The notes: generated by a model not told the origin, from the sequence alone. A stretch of DNA of 64,000 nt from an uncultured Bacteroidales bacterium (GCA_903828645.1 CAIKNA010000071.1:1286-65285), one strand, 5' to 3'. Counted from the stretch's first letter, positions 25,015 through 38,278 are shown. Numbers and translations: made by a program.

Positions 25015-28000
25015 CTACCTGGTCTTTGCCAGTTTGGTATGAATTTCCATCCCTGCATTTGAAGATAACCGAAGGGTGTACAGGCCGGTGGGTAATGAGG
25101 CAGTTGAAAGGGAAATCGTGTTATTGCCGGTCTGCAGAACCACCTCCAAGGTCGTCAGCAACTCTCCTGCAAGGTTTCGGAGTTCAACGGAGACCTTCAT
25201 CTCCTTTTTAATTTCCAGGCTGATCGTTAGTTGATCGTTCACAGGATTCGGATAGGCCACCCATGAAGTTATTCCGGAGGCGATGTCGCTTATACCGGAA
25301 ATATTGGTCCCGGTATAGGTCAGGATCACTGAAGGGTCCGGTTTTTCCCCGGAGATGACCACCTTGATGAGATCACTGGCGATCCCTGCCATTTCGGCTT
25401 TAAGATAGTACGTCCCATAAGCCAGCGATGCAAATGAAAAATGCCCGCCCGGTTTCACCGGATCATAAAAAATTGCTGTACCATTTGAGTTCAGAAGCAA
25501 CATCGTGATTTTTTCAACAAAGTTTGTTTTCAACCCGGAAGTGCTTATCTGCCCGGTGATCGATCCATTGCCCGAATACATTGTTGCGGCACCCACAAGG
25601 TGGATGTTATATGGATTTCCCGGTGTTCCCAGGTGGATGATGGATGCATCTTCCCAGAATAGAACATCCCCGTAAAAAGTCGGAAGATATCCGGTTAAAT
25701 TCACCGGGATAGCATTTACATAATAATCACCCTGGGGGACCATGTCGAAATGGTAGGTCCCGGCTGAATCAACAAGGGTAGTCGCCAGGTATGGCAGGTA
25801 AGGCGGGATGGTATCCACTGAAAAAAGGTTGACAATGCCTGCCTGGATGGGAACCGCATCGGCAAACACCTGCCCGTATATATTATTGGAACCTGTACTA
25901 TCGCTTGTTGTAAAATAGGAGTCATCACCATAAGATATCCCGCCGGCGCTTGACCCGACAATACGGAAGTGATACAGGGTCGATGGCATCAGGTTGAAAA
26001 CCTGCAGGGCTCTCTCATCCGTGTTATTTCCATTAATTGTCCCGTAGGTGGCGGTTGATCCGTATGCCGGGGTTAAACCGTATTGAAAAGTGATGGTGGT
26101 CGATTCGCCATTTGCATTTGCGTCACCCCTCAGCACTGCATTTGTTGCACAGTAATAATAGCAGGTTTTAGTGATTACCGTTGGGGGAAGTATGCCGGCA
26201 GCTGGTGTTGTGAATGTTTCATCATTGCCGTATGATGTTCCTGCACTGTTTGAGCCTTTTAACCGGAAATGATACAATGTCTGAGGCAGGACGCTGATCG
26301 TTCTTTCAACAGGCTGCATAGTGTTCCCGTAGACATGCCCGTAATTATAGGTTGATCCGTATGAGGATGTTAATCCATATTGAAAAGATACATCTGTTTC
26401 AAGCCCGTTTGGGTTTACGTTGCCATTGAGGTTCGCCAGCGTAGAGGTTACATTCGATGCAGGCATCGTGATAACATCCGGAGAAAGGTTTACCGTGGTC
26501 GTGAAAACGGTATCCAGCCCGTATGAGGCGCCGGTTGCGTTCACCCCCACGATCCTATAGTGGTAGGTTGTATAAGGCGTAAGGCCGGTTAGGATGGCAT
26601 TGGCCCAGGTGATCAGTGAATCACCTGATATGGATGCCGGATTTGCCGTCACAGTAGAACCATAGCTTGTTGTAAGGCCGTAATTGAATGTGATTGCCGT
26701 TGTGGAACCGTTTGGATAAACCAATCCGTTTAATGTTGCAGTGGAGAGTCCGACATTGGTGGCGTGAACAGTACGAACCTTCGGCAGCGTATCTGCAGTG
26801 GTGAAAGTCACATCACTCCCGTAACTCGTGCCACCGGCATTGGTGCCCACAGCCCTGTAATGGTAAACATGGCTTGGAAGCAGGTAGTAAATATAAGGTT
26901 CAGTAGTTACCGGTGTATTCCCCGAAATATTTCCGCATTGCAATGTCATGTCATAGGATGCGGTCAATCCATACTCGAACATGACAGCAGTCGGGTTCCC
27001 GTTTGCATTGAAGGTGCCGGAAACATATGAGTAGGTGGCACCGGTCATCGGAGGAGGGTTGGTGGTAACTGCAGGAGGGAGAATGACAGTTGTGGTAAAA
27101 ACGCTGTCGCTCCCGTAGGAAGTGCCGTTTGCATTGACCCCAACCGCCCTGAAATGGTACACGGTCCCGGGCAACAACCCGTTAATGTTCATGTTTACCG
27201 GGGTCATGGTGGTTCCGTATACCATTCCATAGGTAACGGTCGAACCGTAAACCGGTGTCAATCCATACTGAAAAGTGACATAGGCTGGTGTTGCGTTTGC
27301 GTTTACATTTCCATTCAGGGTTGCCCCGGTCGATGAAATCGCAGTTGCATGTGTTGTAATCACCGTCGGAGGGAGGGTGCCAGTGGTTGTAAGGATGGTG
27401 TCAATCCCATAAGAGGTACCTCCTGCGTTCACCCCGGTAATCCGGAAATGGTAGGTCGTGCTTGGCGAAAGGCCTGTCAGTACTGCCCTGGCCCAGGTTT
27501 CGGTAGAATCACCTGAAATGGTTGCGGGGTTCGCATTGATGGTTGTACCATAGCTTGCCGTCAGGCCATAATTGAACGTGATCGTTGTTGTTGAACCGTT
27601 GGGATATACCGATCCGTTAAGCGTTGCCGTTGAAGGACCGATGTCGCTGGCCTGGTGGGTAAACACTTCAGGTAGTGTGTCTAAGGTGGAAAATGTTACA
27701 TCATTCCCATAGGTTGTTCCGCCAACATTGGTCGCGACGGCCCTGCAATGATACAAATGCCCGGGTATCAGTGGGTATGGATATCCGTTAATGCTGGTTG
27801 CCGTGTTTCCGGTTACAGTTCCTGCTGAGGTGGTTGATCCGTAACTTGTAGTCAATCCATATTGAAACGATGCGTTCGTGGTATTTCCGTTAGCATTTAC
27901 AATTCCGGCCAGGTAAGTATATTCTGATCCTATCCAGGTTGGTGCAAGAGTTGTTGCCGCAGGCGGGGATGGAGCCGTTGTGTAACCGGTAACATGAACG

Positions 28001-28566
28001 AGGTCAAGATGACAGTTGTCTCCATAACTTGAACTGAAAAGAAAAGCGATATAAAGAACCGGTTGATTTATTGCACCTGCCGGCAATGGAACAACCTCAT
28101 ATTGCCAGGAGATGGTGTTCGAAAACCGTTGTATTGTCGCAGCAGTTGACCATGTTGTTCCGTTTGTGGACCACTGAACGGCCACGTTGTCATTGCATCC
28201 CGGGTAGCCGTTGCTGGTAAACCATTCAAAATCAACAGAAATCATGGCATAGCTGTTGGTTTGAACGGGTGTTGTACATTTCAGGCGGTTGGAGGTTCCT
28301 GATGCAGCATAAAACGATTGAAACTCAACCATTCTGCTCCCATTGAAGGGATAACTGGAGGGAAAGTTTCCAGTCTGGAGAAAATGGATGTAATTGGCAC
28401 CGGAAACTGGATCAATTGCCCAACCGGCCGGAGGCGTTTGCCCGGTTGCGACAGTTTCCCAGTCTTCGGTGAAAAGAATGGTCTGACATGTCACCTGTTG
28501 GAGGAGCAACATGGAACAGCCAATGAGAAGTACCCTTAGGCTGAAGTTTTGTAATTTTTTTTTCAT
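25015..28566 (-). CDS. T9SS-secreted surface protein with four parts: an N-terminal beta-sandwich head, seven fn3-like repeats, a shared stalk module, and a Por/T9SS C-terminal sorting domain
   Basis: Signal peptide present. The repeated motif is (F/Y)QYGLT..YGST...Y(H)FR..G.N.GGTSYG.D..FTT. The C-terminus WVAYPNPVNDQLTISL...LPTGLYTLRL is typical of the T9SS CTD. Confidence 0.75.
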   Translation of the reverse strand: MKKKLQNFSLRVLLIGCSMLLLQQVTCQTILFTEDWETVATGQTPPAGWAIDPVSGANYIHFLQTGNFPSSYPFNGSRMVEFQSFYAASGTSNRLKCTTPVQTNSYAMISVDFEWFTSNGYPGCNDNVAVQWSTNGTTWSTAATIQRFSNTISWQYEVVPLPAGAINQPVLYIAFLFSSSYGDNCHLDLVHVTGYTTAPSPPAATTLAPTWIGSEYTYLAGIVNANGNTTNASFQYGLTTSYGSTTSAGTVTGNTATSINGYPYPLIPGHLYHCRAVATNVGGTTYGNDVTFSTLDTLPEVFTHQASDIGPSTATLNGSVYPNGSTTTITFNYGLTASYGTTINANPATISGDSTETWARAVLTGLSPSTTYHFRITGVNAGGTSYGIDTILTTTGTLPPTVITTHATAISSTGATLNGNVNANATPAYVTFQYGLTPVYGSTVTYGMVYGTTMTPVNMNINGLLPGTVYHFRAVGVNANGTSYGSDSVFTTTVILPPAVTTNPPPMTGATYSYVSGTFNANGNPTAVMFEYGLTASYDMTLQCGNISGNTPVTTEPYIYYLLPSHVYHYRAVGTNAGGTSYGSDVTFTTADTLPKVRTVHATNVGLSTATLNGLVYPNGSTTAITFNYGLTTSYGSTVTANPASISGDSLITWANAILTGLTPYTTYHYRIVGVNATGASYGLDTVFTTTVNLSPDVITMPASNVTSTLANLNGNVNPNGLETDVSFQYGLTSSYGSTYNYGHVYGNTMQPVERTISVLPQTLYHFRLKGSNSAGTSYGNDETFTTPAAGILPPTVITKTCYYYCATNAVLRGDANANGESTTITFQYGLTPAYGSTATYGTINGNNTDERALQVFNLMPSTLYHFRIVGSSAGGISYGDDSYFTTSDSTGSNNIYGQVFADAVPIQAGIVNLFSVDTIPPYLPYLATTLVDSAGTYHFDMVPQGDYYVNAIPVNLTGYLPTFYGDVLFWEDASIIHLGTPGNPYNIHLVGAATMYSGNGSITGQISTSGLKTNFVEKITMLLLNSNGTAIFYDPVKPGGHFSFASLAYGTYYLKAEMAGIASDLIKVVISGEKPDPSVILTYTGTNISGISDIASGITSWVAYPNPVNDQLTISLEIKKEMKVSVELRNLAGELLTTLEVVLQTGNNTISLSTASLPTGLYTLRLSSNAGMEIHTKLAKTR
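25960..27980 (-). repeat. seven in-frame ~95-aa fn3-like coding repeats arranged as a triplet super-repeat (X-A-B, X'-A'-B', C)
   Basis: Read from the translated protein. For example, A is TLPEVFTHQASDIGPSTATLNGSVYPNGSTTTITFNYGLTASYGTT... and A' is TLPKVRTVHATNVGLSTATLNGLVYPNGSTTAITFNYGLTTSYGST.... Coordinates are approximate. Confidence 0.8.
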
Positions 28567-28744
28567 GGGTTATGAGTTTTGAGGAAACAAAACTGGAAGG
28601 GAAAATATAATTGCAATGTACATATAAGACGTGGATCAATATGTAAAGTTGCCTGCCAATATCAATTTTTTCATCCTGGGAATGACCAGATTCAGATGGG
28701 ATTTGATCATATGGATGGGAGTATTTGGTTCCAAAGTGATGAAT

Positions 28745-28789
28745 TAAAATGAAAAGCGCTGTTTTCTCCCGGAAGCAGCGCTTTTCATT
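28745..28789 (-). terminator. rho-independent terminator after the 751-aa PKD/T9SS gene
   Basis: Perfect 14-bp stem, AATGAAAAGCGCTG (28748-28761) paired with CAGCGCTTTTCATT (28776-28789). On the minus strand it is followed by TTTAATT. Located 20 nt past the stop at 28809. Confidence 0.75.
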
Positions 28790-28808
28790 AAAACCATTCA
28801 AGTCAGGT

Positions 28809-31064
28809 TTACCTGGTTATTATGAGTTTGGTTGTCAGGATCAATCCTTCGCCTGAAAGGAGCCGCAGGGTGTAGATTCCCGCTGGCAGCGAAGCTGTGG
28901 AGATCCGCGTAGTGTTGGTTCCCTCATTCAGTCTGATCTCGCTGCCTGATACCCGCTCGCCGGTCACGTTGTACAGATCAATCGCTGCAGTTGTTGCCTG
29001 CTTCAGGTCGATGTGTAGATCCAGGTGATCAATAACAGGGTTCGGGTAAACCGACCAGTGGTTCACCAGTGATAATTCGTCCCGGATACCCATGATCTTC
29101 TTCCCGTTGAAGGTCATGACAACATCTGCATGCGGTTTTGAAGGGGTGAGGACAATCATGACCTCGTCGCTGGTAACACCGGGCATTTCCGGGTGCAAAT
29201 AATAGGTGCCATAGGCCATCGACGGAAAGGTGAATGCACCGGACGTGGAGACTTTTGTAAAGCCTATCGGCTGACCCTGTGAATTCTTGAGGATCATATT
29301 GACTTTATCCACCAGCGAACTCTTCAGTTTGCTCAGGTTGATCTGGCCAGCTGTAGAACCGGGTCCCGGAGTCATCTGGTCGGAGGGAACAAGGTTGATG
29401 TTGTAAGGATTGTTCTCAGTTCCAAGGGTGATCATTGTAGCCTGCTCCCATGTGATGGTGTTCCCGTAGTAAGTCGGCAGGTAACCATTGGAATCAAAAG
29501 GCAGGGCCAGGATATAGTAGTTGCCGTTTGGAACCATGTTGAAGAAGTACATTCCGGCGGAATCGATCGGAGATACCCCGACAAATGGCTGGTAATTTGG
29601 ACTGGTGTCAAATGAGAAGATCATCGCCAATCCATTGGAAAGGGGAACATTACCTGCGAATACCTGTCCGAAAACCTGGTGAAAATTCATGCTGTCGATG
29701 ACTGAAACATTTTTACAAAATACGCTTGTACAGTTGTTGCCGGTGATGGTGAGGCATACATTATAAATTCCCGTTGAACCAAAGACATGAACAGGGTTCT
29801 GAATGGTTGAGGAGGTGCCGTCGCCAAAACTCCAGAACCAGGATGTGGGATTTCCTTCTGAAAGATCGGTGAAATCGACCGTATAATTCCCAACTGCCGG
29901 ACAGGTGTAAGTGAAATATGCCTGGCATCCAGGACCGCCTCCGGCAACCACGGTGTTGCAGTGGGTATCATAACACGTGCTGTCGGCTCCGTGCACGGTA
30001 AGGCATACATCATAGGATCCCGGTGAACTGAAGACATGGCTGGGATTCCGGAGTGTTGATATGTTGCTGGTTCCGCTGGCGGGATCACCAAAAGACCAGC
30101 TCCAGCTTACAAGGTTGCCCAGGGATTGATCAATGAAATGGACATTCGGGGCAGAAGTCAGCGAATCGGTATAATAGGTGTAGTATGCATGGCATCCCGG
30201 TGTTGTTCCGACAACCAGGGTATCGCAGGTGATATCGAAACAACTGCTGTCCACTCCCTGGATCTTCAGACAGACCATGTATATACCAGGTTGTGAATAA
30301 GTATGGACCACATTCGGGTTTCCCGGAACGATAACGACCTGTGACAGACCATCCCCGAAATTCCAGGTGTAGGAGGCTATGTTGCCGGACGACTGGTTGA
30401 TGAAATGATAGGTGTTTAGCGTATTCATGCTGTCGGGAATGGCAAAAAAAGCTGCATGACAGCCGCCTCCGGTCGAATCCCAAACATAGACTGTTTGCGT
30501 GGTAACCTGGTAGCAGGTTGTTCCGAGGGCGCCGATTGACAGGGTCACGTTATAATAACCGGGCATGCCATAGGTGTGAATCGGGTTCAGCTCAGAGGAG
30601 TTTGCCCCATCGCCGAACATCCAAAGCCGTGTACTCCCGCCCCCTGTGGAAGCATCCATGAACTGCACGGTAAGAGATTGCTGTTGCTGGGTTGTGAAAT
30701 TTGCCTGGCAGGGATTGTTGAAATAGCAGATTGCAAAATCAACGGTAAAGGTGGTAGCAGGCGGGGCTAAGGTCAGTGTAACCTGGTGCCTGTAGTTCTG
30801 GCAATCATAGGTACTCACATATAAAACACACTGGATGTTAGGCGGAACAGGAACACTGTCGGCGTAGAAACCGCTGTTATTGGTGTAAACAGTCTTGTAA
30901 TAAAACCATCCGGTGGCCGAGTCGCTTGAAATGTACACCGCCTGGTTGGGAATTGGATTGCCAGTACCCGTATCAGTGACGGTACCAATTACGGTGAAAA
31001 AATTCTGTGACATGGCTGGCAGCAGCAGCATAACAAATAAAATCTGTAGAAGGAGCTTTTTCAT
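28809..31064 (-). CDS. T9SS-secreted PKD-repeat surface protein (4 PKD domains + shared stalk module + CTD)
   Basis: Four W.FGDG......NP.H.Y...G.Y.V.L units. The C-terminus WSVYPNPVIDHLDL...LPAGIYTLRL is CTD-like. Confidence 0.75.
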   Translation of the reverse strand: MKKLLLQILFVMLLLPAMSQNFFTVIGTVTDTGTGNPIPNQAVYISSDSATGWFYYKTVYTNNSGFYADSVPVPPNIQCVLYVSTYDCQNYRHQVTLTLAPPATTFTVDFAICYFNNPCQANFTTQQQQSLTVQFMDASTGGGSTRLWMFGDGANSSELNPIHTYGMPGYYNVTLSIGALGTTCYQVTTQTVYVWDSTGGGCHAAFFAIPDSMNTLNTYHFINQSSGNIASYTWNFGDGLSQVVIVPGNPNVVHTYSQPGIYMVCLKIQGVDSSCFDITCDTLVVGTTPGCHAYYTYYTDSLTSAPNVHFIDQSLGNLVSWSWSFGDPASGTSNISTLRNPSHVFSSPGSYDVCLTVHGADSTCYDTHCNTVVAGGGPGCQAYFTYTCPAVGNYTVDFTDLSEGNPTSWFWSFGDGTSSTIQNPVHVFGSTGIYNVCLTITGNNCTSVFCKNVSVIDSMNFHQVFGQVFAGNVPLSNGLAMIFSFDTSPNYQPFVGVSPIDSAGMYFFNMVPNGNYYILALPFDSNGYLPTYYGNTITWEQATMITLGTENNPYNINLVPSDQMTPGPGSTAGQINLSKLKSSLVDKVNMILKNSQGQPIGFTKVSTSGAFTFPSMAYGTYYLHPEMPGVTSDEVMIVLTPSKPHADVVMTFNGKKIMGIRDELSLVNHWSVYPNPVIDHLDLHIDLKQATTAAIDLYNVTGERVSGSEIRLNEGTNTTRISTASLPAGIYTLRLLSGEGLILTTKLIITR

Positions 31065-31084
31065 GATCTTTATTATTTAAGGGG

Positions 31085-33601
31085 TTAATTGATTTTGATA
31101 AGTTTTGTGGTTATGAACAACCCGTCTCCGGAATTGATATGCAGGGAGTAAATCCCCGGTGGCAGGGAGGTTGTTGATATCTCGATGTGGTTTACTCCCC
31201 TCGTCAGGGTTGCCTGGGTGCTTGCGGCCATCTTTCCGGTAATGTTGTAAATGCTTATATTGACATTAGTTGCATGCTTGAGGTCGAGGAGAATGGTAAG
31301 CAGGGCTGCAACAGGATTCGGGTAAACCGACCACCTGTTCAAAAGGGTTGCTTCTTCCGGGATGCCCAGTATCTTTTTACCGCTGAAGGTCATCACGACA
31401 TCAGCATGAGGTTTTCCCGGAGAGAGGGTCACCTTCACATAGTCACTGGTAATTCCCGGCATCTCAGCATGCATGTAATAAATGCCGTAAGCCAGCGATG
31501 GAAAGTTGAATGTCCCTGAGGTGGATACGCGGGTGAAGCCGATCGGTGTACCCTGGGCATTCAACAGCACCATGTTGATTTTGTCGGTGATGGAACTCTT
31601 CAGTTTACCCATGTTGATCTGGCCTGAGGCTGAACCCGGACCCGGGGTCATCTGGTCCGACTGAGCAAGGTTGATGTTGTAAGGATTGTTCGCTGTTCCA
31701 AGCGTGATGGGTGAGGTCTGCTCCCAGGTGATCGTATTGCCAAAATACGTTGGCAGGTAACCGCTTGAATCAGACGGAGTGGCCAGAATGTAATAGACCC
31801 CGCCTGGAACAGTGGTGAAGAAATAAACACCGTTTGTGTCGATAGGAGATACGTCAACATAGGGCTGGTAGTTTCCCGTTGTGTCCGAGGAAATGATCAT
31901 GGCAAGGCCGGCAGTTGCCGGGAAACTTCCATTGAAAACCTGGCCGTAAATCTGGTGGTAAACCACGGTATCATGGATGGTAACATCCTGGCAGAATGTA
32001 CTGTTGCAATAGTTGCCCGAGATGGTGAGACATACATGATAAGTACCGGAAGCCGCATAGGAATGTATGGGGTAACGCAGGGCTGATGAATCCCCGTCAC
32101 CAAACTCCCACAGCCATTGTGAAGGCGTACCGGAGGAAAGGTCGGTAAATTGTACCATCTTCGGGCCTGTCACGGGGCTAGTGGTGTAGGTAAAGCCGGA
32201 CTGGCATGGAACAAGTGAATCTGTGATCAGAACAGGTCTTGCGTAACTCTGCCAGCAGGTGGTTGTAAAGTTGCCTACAGATAGGATCACAAGGTACAAA
32301 CCCGGCTTCCTGAAAGTGTGCTGAGGGTTTGCCAGGGAGGAAGTATCTCCGTCCCCGAAGTACCATGACCTGATGTTGCTGCTTCCATAAGAAAGATCCT
32401 GGAATTGAATCGTCTTTGGCAACTGGGTATTGGAAAAACTGAAACTGGCATTGCACAGGAGCGAATCAGCTAACCGGATTAGCTTGGTTGTCGTGTTTGA
32501 ACACCCGGTTATGTTGTTGACAGTGGAAAGGGTCACAAGGAAATCTCCCTGTGAACCATAGGCATGGATGGGGTTCTCAGTGGTCGAGGTGGCCCCGTCT
32601 CCAAAATTCCAAACCCTCGAACTGACACCTCCGGTTGACTTGTCTTCAAACTGCACCGTAAGTATCCCTGCCGCGGAAACCTTCATTTTAGCCTGGCAGG
32701 GAGGGTTAATTTCACAATTGAGAAAAAAATCCTGGTGCAGGTGGTAGTTGAAAGAATTATATGAACCGGACAATTCTTCTGTATACCCGCAATCCTGGGT
32801 CCAGACATAGTAGTTTCCGCTTATCACCCCGACAGACAGGAGCAGTGAATCTGTATAAAAACCGTTGCTGTCGGTGTAAATCGTGCGCGGGGCAACCAGC
32901 GTGTCGTCGATCCCCCACGTCACAGCATGGCCGGGCATGGGGATGCTTGTCAGCGAGTTTGTAATGGTCCCGCTGATTGTGAGATAAACCGGGGTACTCG
33001 TCGTGTCGCCGGCGTATACATTTTTGACAATATTGGCAGAACAACCCGAATTGTTGGAAATGGAGAGTGTTACCGGGTGCCAGCCGGCTGCCCCGTAAAT
33101 ATGTTGCGGGTTTTGAACCGTTGAAGTTCCACCGTCACCGAAATTCCAGTCCCAGGTAACCGGGTTTCCCTGCGTCTGTGACAGGTCTGAAAACTGGAAT
33201 GACCTGCTTGCAAACTGGTTGTAAGTGAAATTAGCTATGCATGGTGTGTTGAAATTGCAGATCGCAAAATCGACTGTGAAATTGTAGCTGGCCGGGTTGT
33301 AATTTAATACAACCTGGTGCTGGTAGTTCTGGCAATCGATGGTGCTAACATACAGTGTTCCGGGACTTCCGCCGGGAACCGGTGTAATGACAGTGTCCCG
33401 GTAAGATCCATTGATATCGGTATAGACTGTATGGTAATAGAACCAGCCGCCGGAGGAATCGGCAACGATGGTCACCGCATGGTTTGCGATCGGTGCGCTC
33501 GTGGCCGTATCCGTTACGGTTCCTCCTATGTTTATAATTCCCTGCGACATCCCCGGAAGGATAACCATGAGGAAAAGGATATGAAGCAGTAGTTTTTTCA
33601 T
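31085..33601 (-). CDS. T9SS-secreted PKD-repeat surface protein, paralog of 28809..31064
   Basis: Same N-terminal signal and first domain, four PKD units, a duplicated carboxypeptidase-regulatory-like N-domain, the shared stalk and a CTD. It lies only 20 nt upstream of its paralog. Confidence 0.75.
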   Translation of the reverse strand: MKKLLLHILFLMVILPGMSQGIINIGGTVTDTATSAPIANHAVTIVADSSGGWFYYHTVYTDINGSYRDTVITPVPGGSPGTLYVSTIDCQNYQHQVVLNYNPASYNFTVDFAICNFNTPCIANFTYNQFASRSFQFSDLSQTQGNPVTWDWNFGDGGTSTVQNPQHIYGAAGWHPVTLSISNNSGCSANIVKNVYAGDTTSTPVYLTISGTITNSLTSIPMPGHAVTWGIDDTLVAPRTIYTDSNGFYTDSLLLSVGVISGNYYVWTQDCGYTEELSGSYNSFNYHLHQDFFLNCEINPPCQAKMKVSAAGILTVQFEDKSTGGVSSRVWNFGDGATSTTENPIHAYGSQGDFLVTLSTVNNITGCSNTTTKLIRLADSLLCNASFSFSNTQLPKTIQFQDLSYGSSNIRSWYFGDGDTSSLANPQHTFRKPGLYLVILSVGNFTTTCWQSYARPVLITDSLVPCQSGFTYTTSPVTGPKMVQFTDLSSGTPSQWLWEFGDGDSSALRYPIHSYAASGTYHVCLTISGNYCNSTFCQDVTIHDTVVYHQIYGQVFNGSFPATAGLAMIISSDTTGNYQPYVDVSPIDTNGVYFFTTVPGGVYYILATPSDSSGYLPTYFGNTITWEQTSPITLGTANNPYNINLAQSDQMTPGPGSASGQINMGKLKSSITDKINMVLLNAQGTPIGFTRVSTSGTFNFPSLAYGIYYMHAEMPGITSDYVKVTLSPGKPHADVVMTFSGKKILGIPEEATLLNRWSVYPNPVAALLTILLDLKHATNVNISIYNITGKMAASTQATLTRGVNHIEISTTSLPPGIYSLHINSGDGLFITTKLIKIN

Positions 33602-33716
33602 AAATCAAGTGTTTTTATAATGGTGGACGAAGGAAATTTTAAGAACCTGGATCCGGATGTTCTACGAAGTAATAACCCGCTCATGATAAAAGGTTGTCCG
33701 AAGTTACGAAAAAAAA

Positions 33717-35153
33717 TTATAATGATATAACGAAAGCTGTACGAAGGCCGATTGACCATGGTTTGGTATTATTAACCGGCTTCTCATAAACCGAATTAAA
33801 ATAATACCTGACATTGGGTTCAATTTCAAATTTTAGGAGTTCTGAAATACGAAAAGAGGTATTCATGCCTGCCATCAATTGCCAGTTCAGACTGACCTGC
33901 CCCGGAGAAATGTCGTTGATGCTGATGATTCGTTTTGTTCCCGGGTCATATGCAGCAGACAATTGTTTTGAAGAGAGCAGCACAGACAACACCGGCCCTA
34001 CCCGCACGCCTATCGAAATTCGTTCTGTCTGGAAGAAATCGTATCCCATGATCATGGGGATCTGAAGATAGGTATATCGTTTGACTACCTTTGGATTATC
34101 GAGTTTCATCAGGCTGTCCCATACGTTCTGTTTTGACAGGTACATGGTCGGGATATAATTATGCGCCGGATCGCTCCATGTGAATTTCATTGAATCCAGT
34201 TTGTTATAAGCGCCAAGGAAATCATTGTACTCCACGATCAGTTCATTTGTTCCGCTCGCAACAGATAAGCCGGCTCCTGTGCGTACAGAGAACCTGCCGA
34301 AATGGAAAGTTCCCTCGAAACCGAAGTTGTTTACAAACTTTGTCCCTTCAAGGGTGTTGAACATCCACTCGGGGGTATAATAAATTCCGGGATCAATGGT
34401 CCAGTTGCCAGGCTTCCGGTATCTATCTGCCGGTTTACCCTCAGGTATGGGAGCGGGTTTAACCAATGAATCAGGCTTTTTTATCAATGAAGTTGTATCC
34501 AAACCTGGTGTATTGGGAGTTACCGGAACATTGTTCTGCACTTTCCCGGCATCCGGAGCAATGGTAGCTGCAAGTGGAACCGGTTCGCCTTCTCTGGCTG
34601 TCAGTCCTGCCGCGACAGGTGTTTCCGGATGAGATCGTTGGAGCTGGCTGTTTTGCTCAGCCGTTTTTTGCAGTTGTGGTGTTTCTTGGGTCCGGCCAGT
34701 CTGGCTTCCTGAGACACAAGCTGACCTTCCTTGTTTGCTGATCAGTGTTTGCGCAGGGGGGGGGAGGAATTTCTGTTTTTGCGGTTGATGTTCAGTAAGA
34801 TTGTTGTAAAGTTTGCCGGTATTTTTCAGTTGTTTTATTTCATTTGAATTTGTTTTTTCTGATGAGGTGGTATTCATGGCTGACATAGGGGAACCTTTCA
34901 TGGAAGCCTTGATTTTCCTAATGGGTTCAACGGAGAATTCATGAGAAGAGTTACCCCAGATGAAAATTCCTGAAACAACCAGTAAGGTTACCGCTGATAG
35001 AAGGATCAACCCTTTTCTTCCCTTATTTTTCGGTGGGGGTATTTGCATAACATCCTTCAGAAACGCCTGTCTGGCATCATCCGAAGGAGTCATCCGGTGA
35101 TCCCTGAGAGCCTCCCTCAGGAATTCATCTGTTGGATGATTATACTTTTTCAT
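33717..35153 (-). CDS. anti-sigma-like membrane protein: short cytoplasmic N-terminus, one TM, Pro/Gln/Thr-rich linker, C-terminal beta-rich (barrel-like) domain
   Basis: The start overlaps the ECF sigma stop by 14 nt. The TM segment is GLILLSAVTLLVVSGIFIWG. The C-terminal ~230 aa has alternating hydrophobic/polar strands. The function is inferred from position only. Confidence 0.45.
   Translation of the reverse strand: MKKYNHPTDEFLREALRDHRMTPSDDARQAFLKDVMQIPPPKNKGRKGLILLSAVTLLVVSGIFIWGNSSHEFSVEPIRKIKASMKGSPMSAMNTTSSEKTNSNEIKQLKNTGKLYNNLTEHQPQKQKFLPPPAQTLISKQGRSACVSGSQTGRTQETPQLQKTAEQNSQLQRSHPETPVAAGLTAREGEPVPLAATIAPDAGKVQNNVPVTPNTPGLDTTSLIKKPDSLVKPAPIPEGKPADRYRKPGNWTIDPGIYYTPEWMFNTLEGTKFVNNFGFEGTFHFGRFSVRTGAGLSVASGTNELIVEYNDFLGAYNKLDSMKFTWSDPAHNYIPTMYLSKQNVWDSLMKLDNPKVVKRYTYLQIPMIMGYDFFQTERISIGVRVGPVLSVLLSSKQLSAAYDPGTKRIISINDISPGQVSLNWQLMAGMNTSFRISELLKFEIEPNVRYYFNSVYEKPVNNTKPWSIGLRTAFVISL
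34756..34764 (-). repeat. G9 (C9 on the coding strand) homopolymer inside the anti-sigma-like CDS
   Basis: The plus strand reads gcgcaGGGGGGGGGagg. The coding strand reads ttc ctC CCC CCC CCt gcg and encodes L-P-P-P at about aa 130-133. Confidence 0.95.
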
Positions 35154-35724
35154 AGGTCGGTTGTGTTTGAATATTGACCAGTTGATTCATTTTTTTTCTA
35201 AGCATGGAACGGGCTTTCGAAAGTTGCGACTTTGAAGTGTTTTCCGAACACTTCAAAAGTTCTGCGATCTCCTTGTGCCCGTATTGGTCAAAAACGAAAA
35301 GGTTTAACACAGTGCGATACCCGGAAGGCAGTTCGCAGATCAGTTTCATGATCTGTTCCCGGTCAACACTCAGGTATATATCTTCGGGGTCGTTCTCCGG
35401 TTCATTGTGAAGATCGATTTTTTCCTGGATAGGGTCGATATCGATGAAGTTTTTCTCTTTCAGGCGGCCTCGTAAAAAATTCAGGGCCGTATTGACCATG
35501 ATTTTCCTCATCCAGGCTTCCAGGCTTCCTTCTGACCGTATCTTAAATGTCTGAATTTTCTGAATGATCTTGATGAATCCGTCGTGAAGAATATCCTCCG
35601 CATCATCCCGGTTTCCGCAGTAACGAAAACACACGCTTAACAGGATTGGCGCATAACGGTCGTACAGCGCTTCAATGGCGCCGGCATCCCTCGCAATCGC
35701 TTTTTTGATAAGGTCTTCCTCCAC
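35140..35724 (-). CDS. ECF-type RNA polymerase sigma-70 family factor
   Basis: Region 2 (RDDAEDILHDGFIKI) and a region 4 helix-turn-helix (IAELLKCSENTSKSQLSKARSMLRKKM). Confidence 0.85.
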   Translation of the reverse strand: MEEDLIKKAIARDAGAIEALYDRYAPILLSVCFRYCGNRDDAEDILHDGFIKIIQKIQTFKIRSEGSLEAWMRKIMVNTALNFLRGRLKEKNFIDIDPIQEKIDLHNEPENDPEDIYLSVDREQIMKLICELPSGYRTVLNLFVFDQYGHKEIAELLKCSENTSKSQLSKARSMLRKKMNQLVNIQTQPTYEKV

Positions 35725-35786
35725 GGGTTTTCAGTATCCTGTATAAAGATAACACAACTGTTTATAAAGGTTGCCCCGGATGTTAA

Positions 35787-35827
35787 AAAAAAGAGGCTGC
35801 CGGAAACATTCCGGCAGCCTCTTTTTT
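35787..35827 (-). terminator. rho-independent terminator after hppA (hairpin flanked by A-run and T-run, potentially bidirectional)
   Basis: Perfect 13-bp stem, AAGAGGCTGCCGG (35791-35803) paired with CCGGCAGCCTCTT (35811-35823), with a 7-nt loop. It has TTTT on the plus side and T-runs on the minus side. Confidence 0.85.
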
Positions 35828-35842: not shown

Positions 35843-38278
35843 TTAGTCTCTGATACGCATTTTGTAAAATGAACGGTAAACAAAATATAGGGCAACGGCA
35901 AAAAAAGCAAGTCCGATGTAGTGGGCGACCGGCCGGAAATGCACAGACAGGGCAATTTCCATGGCCAGTAAGCCAAACAGGGTAGTAAACTTGATGATGG
36001 GATTCATGGCAACCGATGAGGTGTCTTTGAAAGGATCACCAACGGTATCGCCAACAACGGAAGCGGCATGAAGTTCTGTTCCCTTTTCTTTCATATCAAC
36101 CTCAATAACCTTTTTTGCATTGTCCCAGGCGCCACCGGCGTTGGCCATGAAAATGGCCTGATACAAGCCGAAGAAGGCAATCGAGATCAGGTAACTCACG
36201 AAAAGCGATACCGGCAAGGCATAATTCAGTTTTTCTGTGCCCGTCATCGATTCAGTCAACCCGGTAGGGGAGGACAAAAACGCAAAGGCCAGTGCAAAGG
36301 AGAAAATTGCTATGAAAATGTTTAGCATGCCCTTCTGTGCATAAACAGTGCAGATTTGAACCACCTCTTTCGATTTGGCCGTGTCGGCTTTTTTGGGAGC
36401 GTTGGGGTCGAGGTTGATATTCTTCTTAATGTAAGCAACCGCGCGGCTTGCTCCTGTGGTAACTGCCTGGATGGATGCCCCGCTGAACCAGTAAATGACA
36501 GAGCCGCCTAACAGAAATCCTAAAATGGTGTAAGGATTTAAAAGCGTAAGGATCTGTTCAGGCTCGATGCCAAGCGATTTTTTGATCACCAGGATGAGCG
36601 AAAAGATCATCGTTGTGGCACCCACAACCGCGGTGCCGATCAGAACGGGTTTTGCGGTGGCTTTGAAGGTGTTTCCGGCTCCGTCATTCGCTTCCAGGTA
36701 ATGTTTGGATTTTTCGAAATCAGGTTTGAAACCGAAATCCCGCTGTATTTCAGCGCTTATCCCCGGAATTTCCTCAATCAGCGACAGTTCGTAAATGGAT
36801 TGGGCGTTGTCGGTCACAGGTCCGTAACTGTCGACCGCGATGGTAACCGGGCCCATGCCAAGCATGCCGAAGGCCACCAGGCCGAAAGCAAAAATGGATG
36901 GATAGATCATGAAGTTGATCAACCCGAAAGTGCTTGCATAGTATGCAATGAACATGAGCAGGAAAAAGACCATGCCCTGCCAGAAAGCGCTGAAGTTACC
37001 CGCAACAAGTCCCGAAAGGATGTTGAGCGATGCCCCGCCTTCCTGGGAGGCAACTACGACCTCTTTTACATGCGTCGATTTGGGACTCGTGAAAAGCTTT
37101 GTGAATTCGGGGATCAATGCTGCTCCAAGTGTTCCGGCACTGATGATGACTGACAGGATGATCCACAGGTCGCTTGGAAGACCGTTGATCTGAATGTCTT
37201 TTATTGTCAGAAAACTGATTGCGAAAGTAACGACGATGGATAAGATCGAAGTTATCCATACCAGGGAGGTCAAAGGTTTTTCGAAATCAAGATCATCAAC
37301 CTTGTCGTATTTTGCCTTGCTGATAGCGCCATTGATCCAGAAGGATACAATGGAAGTGATGATCATGAAGATGCGCATCACGAAAATCCAGGTGAGCAGT
37401 TGAACCTGAACGGCAGGGTCTTTAACTGCAAGTACGATAAATGAAATGAGGGCCACACCTGTTACACCATAGGTTTCAAAACCGTCGGCAGTGGGGCCAA
37501 CGCTGTCGCCGGCATTGTCGCCTACACAATCGGCAATGGTTCCCGGGTTTCTCGGATCATCTTCGCCGATTTTGAAGATCACTTTCATCAGGTCCGAACC
37601 AATATCAGCGATTTTGGTGAAAATACCACCCGCAATTCTCAATGCGGAGGCGCCTAAGGATTCACCGATGGCAAACCCGATAAAACTTGCCCCTGCATAC
37701 TCTCCGGGAACAAACATCAGGATGATCAGCATCATGATGAGCTCCAGCGAGATCAGTACAACGCCGATGCTCATTCCCGCGTTTAAAGGGATGTTAAGCA
37801 GTTTGATAGGTTTCCGCTCCAGGGAGGCAAAAGCCATCCGCGCATTTGCCAGGGTGTTCATCCTGATTCCAAACCATGCTACACTGTAGGAGCCCAGGAT
37901 TCCGATTATGGTCCAACCCAGGATCATCAATACCCCACCGATTCCGAAGTTGGCATCTGAGAGCCATCCAAAATAAAATGCCACGGCAGAGCCGATAAAT
38001 ACGAAAAGAATTACTAAAAATTTCCCCTGCTGAATGAGATACGTCTTCGATGTTTCGAAAATAACCTGTGCAACATCCAGCATGGATTTATGTGCACCGA
38101 TTTTTTTAACTTTAAGAAATTGGAATAATCCAAACATAAAACCTGCGAAAGTGATCAAAAAACCCCAATAAAGGATGGACTGATCTCTAATCCCTGCAGG
38201 AATTACAAGATTCGCTTCGCCTGCCATTGTGAAAAATGGCAATAGCAAAGCCATAAGAAATGCACTGGCTCTTTTCAT
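35843..38278 (-). CDS. hppA: membrane-integral H+/Na+-translocating pyrophosphatase
   Basis: GGIFTKIADIGSDL, DCVGDNAGD and VGDTVGDPFKDT motifs in a polytopic protein. Confidence 0.9.
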   Translation of the reverse strand: MKRASAFLMALLLPFFTMAGEANLVIPAGIRDQSILYWGFLITFAGFMFGLFQFLKVKKIGAHKSMLDVAQVIFETSKTYLIQQGKFLVILFVFIGSAVAFYFGWLSDANFGIGGVLMILGWTIIGILGSYSVAWFGIRMNTLANARMAFASLERKPIKLLNIPLNAGMSIGVVLISLELIMMLIILMFVPGEYAGASFIGFAIGESLGASALRIAGGIFTKIADIGSDLMKVIFKIGEDDPRNPGTIADCVGDNAGDSVGPTADGFETYGVTGVALISFIVLAVKDPAVQVQLLTWIFVMRIFMIITSIVSFWINGAISKAKYDKVDDLDFEKPLTSLVWITSILSIVVTFAISFLTIKDIQINGLPSDLWIILSVIISAGTLGAALIPEFTKLFTSPKSTHVKEVVVASQEGGASLNILSGLVAGNFSAFWQGMVFFLLMFIAYYASTFGLINFMIYPSIFAFGLVAFGMLGMGPVTIAVDSYGPVTDNAQSIYELSLIEEIPGISAEIQRDFGFKPDFEKSKHYLEANDGAGNTFKATAKPVLIGTAVVGATTMIFSLILVIKKSLGIEPEQILTLLNPYTILGFLLGGSVIYWFSGASIQAVTTGASRAVAYIKKNINLDPNAPKKADTAKSKEVVQICTVYAQKGMLNIFIAIFSFALAFAFLSSPTGLTESMTGTEKLNYALPVSLFVSYLISIAFFGLYQAIFMANAGGAWDNAKKVIEVDMKEKGTELHAASVVGDTVGDPFKDTSSVAMNPIIKFTTLFGLLAMEIALSVHFRPVAHYIGLAFFAVALYFVYRSFYKMRIRD

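Follow-up and report, generated by a model that had tools for sequence, protein, structure and literature searches.

We analysed a 64,000-nt stretch of DNA from an uncultured Bacteroidales bacterium (GCA_903828645.1 CAIKNA010000071.1:1286-65285), hereafter the window, with all positions counted on the whole stretch. A first-pass annotation had described five consecutive minus-strand genes in it, encoding an extracytoplasmic function (ECF) sigma factor, a 478-aa protein and three type IX secretion system (T9SS) cargo proteins, and all five open reading frames (ORFs) were recovered where it had placed them, flanked by an H+-pyrophosphatase gene upstream and gcvP downstream. We consider it probable that this block constitutes a cross-envelope sigma/anti-sigma switch of the Dma type together with its own target genes. 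The genes are:

35140 to 35724, minus strand: ECF sigma factor gene, 194 aa, GTG start
33717 to 35153, minus strand: predicted Dma-type anti-sigma factor gene, 478 aa, overlapping the sigma gene by 14 nt (35140-35153)
31085 to 33601, minus strand: cargo A gene, 838 aa
28809 to 31064, minus strand: cargo B gene, 751 aa, starting 20 nt past cargo A
25015 to 28566, minus strand: cargo C gene, 1183 aa

The 478-aa protein had been proposed to consist of a ~45-aa cytoplasmic part, one transmembrane (TM) helix, a ~170-aa linker and a ~230-aa C-terminal domain. An AlphaFold2 (AF2) model, computed with an alignment of 43 homologues as input, agrees with this division. Helices at residues 7-15 and 25-36 precede a TM helix at 45-72, residues 73-244 are disordered with no secondary structure (predicted local distance difference test (pLDDT) score <50), and ten long strands, mostly at pLDDT >90, extend over residues 251-476. 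On the gene, these parts correspond to:

35022 to 35153, minus strand: predicted sigma-binding N-terminus, aa 1-44
34938 to 35021, minus strand: TM helix, aa 45-72 (AF2)
34422 to 34937, minus strand: disordered tether, aa 73-244 (AF2)
33720 to 34421, minus strand: predicted 10-strand outer-membrane (OM) beta-barrel, aa 245-478 (AF2, Foldseek)

Across the 43 homologues, the N-terminus is strongly conserved (MKKxxHPxDDFFRExLxDHxxxPSxxAKKAFL) and is followed by a hydrophobic helix, which in the window protein contains the stretch GLILLSAVTLLVVSGIFIWG with KNKGRKG just before it. The linker is of low complexity and differs in length among the homologues, and the C-terminal ~230 residues are very conserved, with a hydrophobic or aromatic last residue. 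Using Foldseek against the PDB, the top matches were all OM barrels (OmpA TM domain, Ail, NspA, OmpX, OmpT/Pla and OpcA), and hhalign aligned the whole barrel to other sigma-adjacent OMP_b-brl_2 proteins with 98.4% probability. Both paralogues in the source genome score 31-35 bits against the OMP_b-brl_2 family (PF13568), and many homologues also lie above its cut-off. By its predicted fold, the C-terminal domain is an OM beta-barrel, as the first-pass annotation had surmised from the strand pattern. The tether-coding part of the gene also carries a run of nine cytosines (34756-34764). We considered phase variation through this run; among ~77 related genes, however, only 3 have homopolymers of >=7, none of them at this position, and the run therefore does not appear to be a conserved switch.

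The combination of an inner-membrane anchor with a barrel had been called unusual; a precedent exists, however, in the Dma family, published in 2024 (PMC10927553). Pardue et al. 2024 described the anti-sigma factor Dma1, in which 40 N-terminal residues suffice to bind the ECF21 sigma factor Das1, and which continues with a single TM helix and a long disordered tether and ends in an OMP_b-brl_2 barrel located in the outer membrane and in vesicles; a doubly tagged Dma protein and membrane fractionation were used for the dual-membrane placement (PMC10927553). A 2026 follow-up (PMC13088901) defines the family by four architectural features. The window protein has all four, with sigma binding by the N-terminus as a prediction: it shares with Dma1 the short N-terminus, the single TM helix, the long disordered tether and a PF13568-type C-terminal barrel. 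The likeness extends to a gene placed directly after that of an ECF sigma, a family restricted to Bacteroidota, and targets that are envelope or surface proteins.

A profile search of 300 genomes of the phylum returned weak N-terminal matches outside the organism's own lineage, and these were proteins encoded directly after ECF sigmas and carrying PF13568 barrels. No full-length match to the barrel was found outside the lineage in this sample, the source genome being the only one to give it. Because of this result, and of the ten strands predicted by AF2 where eight are reported for Dma1, the window family appears to be a distinct sequence subfamily within the Dma type. We looked for a canonical Dma1 orthologue among the 16 PF13568 matches of the source genome and rejected it, as only three modules adjoin an ECF sigma. 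A related arrangement, belonging to another family of this class, was observed at locus L088 (3019-6745), where the genes after that of an ECF sigma encode first a 592-aa protein and then a 421-aa protein with CarboxypepD_reg and the T9SS C-terminal domain (CTD). The N-terminus of the 592-aa protein is homologous to that of the window anti-sigma (hhalign 93.6%) and its C-terminus has no Pfam match. These three genes may form an independent triad of sigma, anti-sigma and T9SS cargo whose outer domain is of another kind.

The 194-aa sigma factor itself has Sigma70_r2 and r4_2 domains (Pfam) and matches TIGR02937 at 98 bits; its NCBIfam matches above cut-off are at superfamily level only. It is 40-48% identical to sigmas adjoining other PF13568 anti-sigmas, and for sigmas beside other anti-sigma proteins of the barrel type the range is 40-55%.

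We next consider how widely the arrangement is kept. The order of sigma gene, Dma-like gene and cargo gene with PKD domains and CTD is found in three modules of the source genome, namely in the window and on contigs C278 and C127. When one genome was taken per species, a scan for related loci gave 80, and nearly all of them belong to uncultured Bacteroidales from lakes, peat and sediments. In every one with enough flank (~75), the order of sigma, Dma-like gene and cargo A/B homologue is kept, the 14-nt overlap is usual, and several of the genomes have two modules. An exhaustive profile search (E <= 1e-30) gave 395 family representatives at 50% identity, and the triad is still seen at the representative ranked 150th. 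Conservation of the gene neighbourhood, one of the checks proposed at the outset, is therefore borne out. Since the arrangement is seen again at 3 loci of the source genome and at ~75 loci elsewhere, it is far from chance. In the C127 module (L006, 6244-7392), a second ECF sigma (183 aa) and a 195-aa partner with no Pfam match lie directly downstream of the cargo gene. At another locus (L093, G301:C9:27893-29290), a C127-type anti-sigma gene contains one in-frame TAA, which may mark a pseudogene or an assembly error.

By inspection, the spacers before the sigma gene and the first cargo gene were found to have a motif in common, aGGCAACCwTT-N10-G(G/T)GTTA, referred to here as class 1. Its two copies in the window are:

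35750 to 35775, minus strand: predicted class-1 ECF-type promoter of the sigma operon, -35 GGCAAC (35775-35770), -10 GTGTTA (35755-35750)
33673 to 33698, minus strand: predicted class-1 ECF-type promoter of cargo A/B, 19 nt past the anti-sigma stop codon, -35 GACAAC (33698-33693), -10 GGGTTA (33678-33673)

A permissive form of the pattern, with a background rate in the genome of 0.079 per kb per strand, was present upstream of the sigma gene in 56/70 related loci; across the different counts, the motif precedes the sigma gene in 55-64 of ~70. Of the 61 loci with a spacer >45 nt separating anti-sigma and cargo genes, 58 have it in that spacer. In an unbiased 6-mer count, GGCAAC was enriched 14-16 fold: 58/71 of the regions upstream of sigma genes contained it where 3.7 were expected, and 55/61 of those upstream of cargo genes where 3.9 were expected. 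GTGTTA and GGGTTA were the next enriched words. We then built a position weight matrix (PWM) only from the sites of other genomes, themselves picked by regular expression, and scanned the 5.1-Mb source genome with it. Its four highest scores (30.8, 28.9, 25.3 and 22.8 bits) fell on the promoters before the sigma and cargo genes in the window module and the C278 module; the window sigma promoter is the best match in the genome (30.8 bits) and the window cargo A/B promoter the third (25.3 bits). In three independent genomes, 5 of the 7 exact matches to AGGCAAC-N14-GKGTT lie at modules.

Read from sequence, the predicted regulon is essentially the module itself. Further members were sought among the PWM matches below the top four and rejected, as these are mostly intragenic or have no downstream gene; the same scan of the source genome found no class-1 motif at T9SS machinery genes (por, gld), and no convincing ORF follows the extra motif copies downstream of the cargo gene at three loci (L075, L084 and L086). 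In those relatives that are the most distant, as in the C127 module, no spacer sets the cargo gene apart from the anti-sigma gene; the genes form one operon, and a single autoregulated operon therefore gives the same wiring. As for the shared ECF promoter that the first-pass annotation had wanted sought at three positions, both 35724 and 33601 have the motif upstream, whereas the site upstream of 28566 is a related but distinct version.

Two terminator hairpins were identified:

35787 to 35827, minus strand: terminator hairpin (-32 kcal/mol, z -8.6) that follows the upstream H+-pyrophosphatase gene and leads into a T run
28745 to 28789, minus strand: intrinsic terminator closing the cargo A/B transcription unit, -23.7 kcal/mol, z -5.0

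The first insulates the sigma operon from transcription of the pyrophosphatase gene (ORF 35843-38278, H_PPase). The second had already been singled out as a strong terminator, and its folding energy agrees. Since cargo B starts 20 nt after cargo A, the two genes are probably co-transcribed. Between promoter and start codon, the cargo leader has some features of its own:

33641 to 33660, minus strand: leader element ACATCCGGATCCAGGTTCTT, lying downstream of the cargo promoter and conserved in close relatives

In the form ACATCCGG(A/T)(A/T)CCAGGTTCTT, the element occurs in the window and in seven related loci (L007, L017, L018, L025, L026, L042 and L070), ~15-35 nt downstream of the -10 of the cargo promoter, and contains small imperfect palindromes. 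RNA structure in the leader was considered and rejected, as RNAalifold gave no consensus pairs and single-sequence folds were weak (mean z -0.6). At several loci, heptanucleotide tandem repeats fill the leader from promoter to cargo start, of the CAATGNA type in L010, L011, L013, L018, L019 and L029 and of the AATCGTA type in L056.

The three cargo proteins each have an N-terminal signal peptide, visible as a hydrophobic leader, and match TIGR04183/Por_Secre_tail (NCBIfam) at 49.6 (A), 43.2 (B) and 34.6 (C) bits against a cut-off of 23. They have in common a ~280-aa C-terminal 'stalk' and the CTD. Cargo A is composed of the signal peptide, an N-terminal beta-sandwich, PKD repeats, a two-sandwich stalk and a T9SS type-A CTD, and cargo B has the same architecture; in Pfam terms, each combines a CarboxypepD_reg-like head with four PKD domains. 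Cargo C has a different head with Fn3-like repeats, and the same stalk and type-A CTD. AF2 models cargo A as a string of beta-sandwich domains, for which the top Foldseek matches are GhpA (the T9SS-secreted grappling-hook filament of Aureispira), S-layer proteins and adhesion receptors, and the cargo proteins showed no enzymatic domain. Because of these structural matches, a surface fibre or adhesin-like protein seems a fair description of the cargo. The secretion machinery itself is encoded in the source genome (SprA 2592 bits, GldM 297 bits). Residues 201-300 of cargo A (32702-33001) form an extra ~100-residue segment, at sequence level a second CarboxypepD_reg-like repeat, that most homologues are without and that AF2 models at a pLDDT of about 30.

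Cargo C, which lies behind the terminator and is without the class-1 motif, is preceded by a promoter of another form:

28627 to 28653, minus strand: predicted class-2 ECF-type promoter of cargo C, -35 GGCAAC (28653-28648), N15, -10 ACGTCT (28632-28627)

The pattern GGCAAC-N15-(A/G)(C/G/T)GTCT(T/A)AT precedes cargo C and cargo-C-like genes in four other genomes (L011, L017, L018 and L042). The same class-2 form is the nearly invariant upstream promoter of the sigma gene of C127-type modules, AGGCAACTTAATTTCCTGATTTACGTCTG, as seen in the source genome and in those four genomes. Because the class-2 motif is identical to this autoregulatory promoter, cargo C is probably driven by the paralogous C127-type sigma rather than by the adjacent one, which suggests cross-locus wiring between modules. 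Besides cargo C and the C127 sigma gene, two further genes of the source genome have an intergenic class-2 site before them, both with a GGCAAC-N15-GTCT promoter and no adjoining sigma/anti-sigma pair. One encodes a 676-aa orphan cargo from the same family (C130:13166-15196, minus strand), and the other encodes a large secreted protein of >1193 aa (C31:1-3579, minus strand). The proposal of a dedicated circuit over the whole cargo family is thus supported, by shared promoter motif, for cargo A and B, and probably gives way to a paralogous sigma for cargo C.

Taken with the published behaviour of Dma1, these data are consistent with the following mechanism, in which binding of the sigma and its release by proteolysis, the signal, the dual-membrane topology and transcription from the motifs are our inferences. 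The first ~45 residues of the 478-aa protein would hold the ECF sigma in the cytoplasm at the inner membrane, where a single helix would anchor the protein; the ~170-residue tether would cross the periplasm and the barrel would sit in the outer membrane. If the analogy with Dma1 is followed, a disturbance arising at the barrel or tether, or affecting it, would lead to proteolysis of tether and anchor and so free the sigma; the source genome has a gene for a site-2 protease homologue (RseP). The freed sigma would transcribe from GGCAAC-N14-G(G/T)GTTA promoters, with the copy before the sigma operon giving positive feedback and the copy before cargo A/B switching on T9SS-secreted, bead-on-a-string surface proteins. 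Cargo C would be driven by the C127-type paralogue through its GGCAAC-N15-ACGTCT promoter. Some points weigh against this picture. The 478-aa protein scores 23.6 bits with PF13568, below the Pfam cut-off of 27, and the predicted strand count is 10, against the 8 reported for Dma1. The location statistics within the loci that trained the PWM are partly circular, whereas the own-genome scan and the 6-mer test are not. The sigma of the class-2 promoter is assigned by motif identity alone.

Other explanations can be weighed against the same evidence. The 478-aa protein could be an ordinary OM protein with a long uncleaved leader, co-transcribed by chance, with the real regulator of the sigma encoded elsewhere; its N-terminal domain is indeed very short and is matched by no Pfam or NCBIfam anti-sigma model. 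Yet these N-terminal 45 residues are strongly conserved despite the variable linker and have homologues at the N-termini of other proteins whose genes directly follow those of ECF sigmas, the gene overlap suggests translational coupling, and the equivalent 40 residues of Dma1 suffice for sigma binding (PMC10927553), which together make a chance passenger very improbable. A different simplification, and one that we regard as unlikely although it deserves some weight, places all three cargo genes in the regulon of the adjacent sigma, with the class-2 promoter as a tolerated variant. Both classes have an identical -35 (GGCAAC) and -10 elements with GxGT in common, and cargo-C-like genes adjoin class-1 modules in 4 other genomes. 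Against a single regulon, the N15-ACGTCT form matches the conserved C127-type autoregulatory promoter in 5 genomes, a C127-type module is present in all 4 genomes with cargo-C-like genes, and the class-1 PWM gives the cargo C promoter no score.

The secreted cargo could also be both output and input of the switch, acting through contact of its stalk or head with the barrel loops, or through an export failure felt by the tether. Every module pairs one barrel with one cargo, including paralogous modules within a single genome, conservation within the cargo is highest in the stalk, and PorA of Porphyromonas gingivalis offers a precedent as a CTD protein that feeds a T9SS sigma pathway (PMC7712824). 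However, tight linkage is equally expected if the cargo is merely a target. Moreover, type-A CTD cargo is normally anchored to anionic lipopolysaccharide (A-LPS) and needs no barrel partner. We therefore hold such a closed loop to be doubtful; if true, sigma activity would report cargo or T9SS status and not general envelope stress, and the earlier suggestion that the 478-aa protein senses 'T9SS status' is for now speculation. A broader version, which we would give similarly little credence, sees the paralogous cross-envelope modules as a network in which each is hard-wired to its own T9SS fibre. Promoter sub-classes, set apart by a single base in the spacer and by their -10 hexamers, would insulate or cross-connect the modules, and the exported fibre would feed back on the barrel in a closed loop that measures its arrival at the surface.

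Regarded as a Dma-type switch, the module can be set beside several known systems. Dma1 controls NigD-type lipoproteins, whereas the predicted targets here are T9SS-secreted PKD proteins; unlike in Dma1, the window-type target is fixed in cis behind a second promoter copy, and there are several paralogous modules per genome. Dma2/Das2/BT_1557 of B. thetaiotaomicron is a three-gene operon (PMC13088901) and likewise unites a sigma, a Dma protein and a third gene. The third gene differs: BT_1557 is of unknown function, whereas here it encodes a T9SS type-A cargo, usually with its own sigma-type promoter. The FecA/FecR/FecI system resembles the module in its path from an outer-membrane signal through a membrane-spanning anti-sigma and an ECF sigma to adjacent genes; in the window, however, receptor and anti-sigma would be one polypeptide, with no TonB-dependent transporter and no FecR domain. 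PorXY-SigP/PorA of P. gingivalis (PMC4800418, PMC7712824) likewise has a T9SS-linked ECF sigma and a CTD-bearing protein in signalling, but SigP is under two-component control and drives T9SS machinery genes, whereas a Dma-type anti-sigma with cargo genes is predicted here. The Dma-type architecture is already published. Its fixed partnership with T9SS cargo was not found in the literature searched, and the conserved sigma-Dma-cargo order, the promoter pair readable from sequence and the paralogous promoter classes are also beyond that literature.

The first descriptions of Dma-type anti-sigma factors date from 2024 and are confined to gut Bacteroides, where the signals and most targets are still unknown. 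The window subfamily offers an unusually clean case, with 395 representatives, a self-contained predicted regulon, a promoter that can be read from sequence and a defined T9SS surface-protein target. It also provides a rule for annotation, in that a gene labelled 'hypothetical' or 'outer membrane beta-barrel' is likely to encode a Dma-type anti-sigma if it comes after an ECF sigma gene and before a PKD/CTD gene. The module thereby makes testable what signal the barrel receives, how specificity is kept among paralogous modules, and whether secretion and transcription are coupled.

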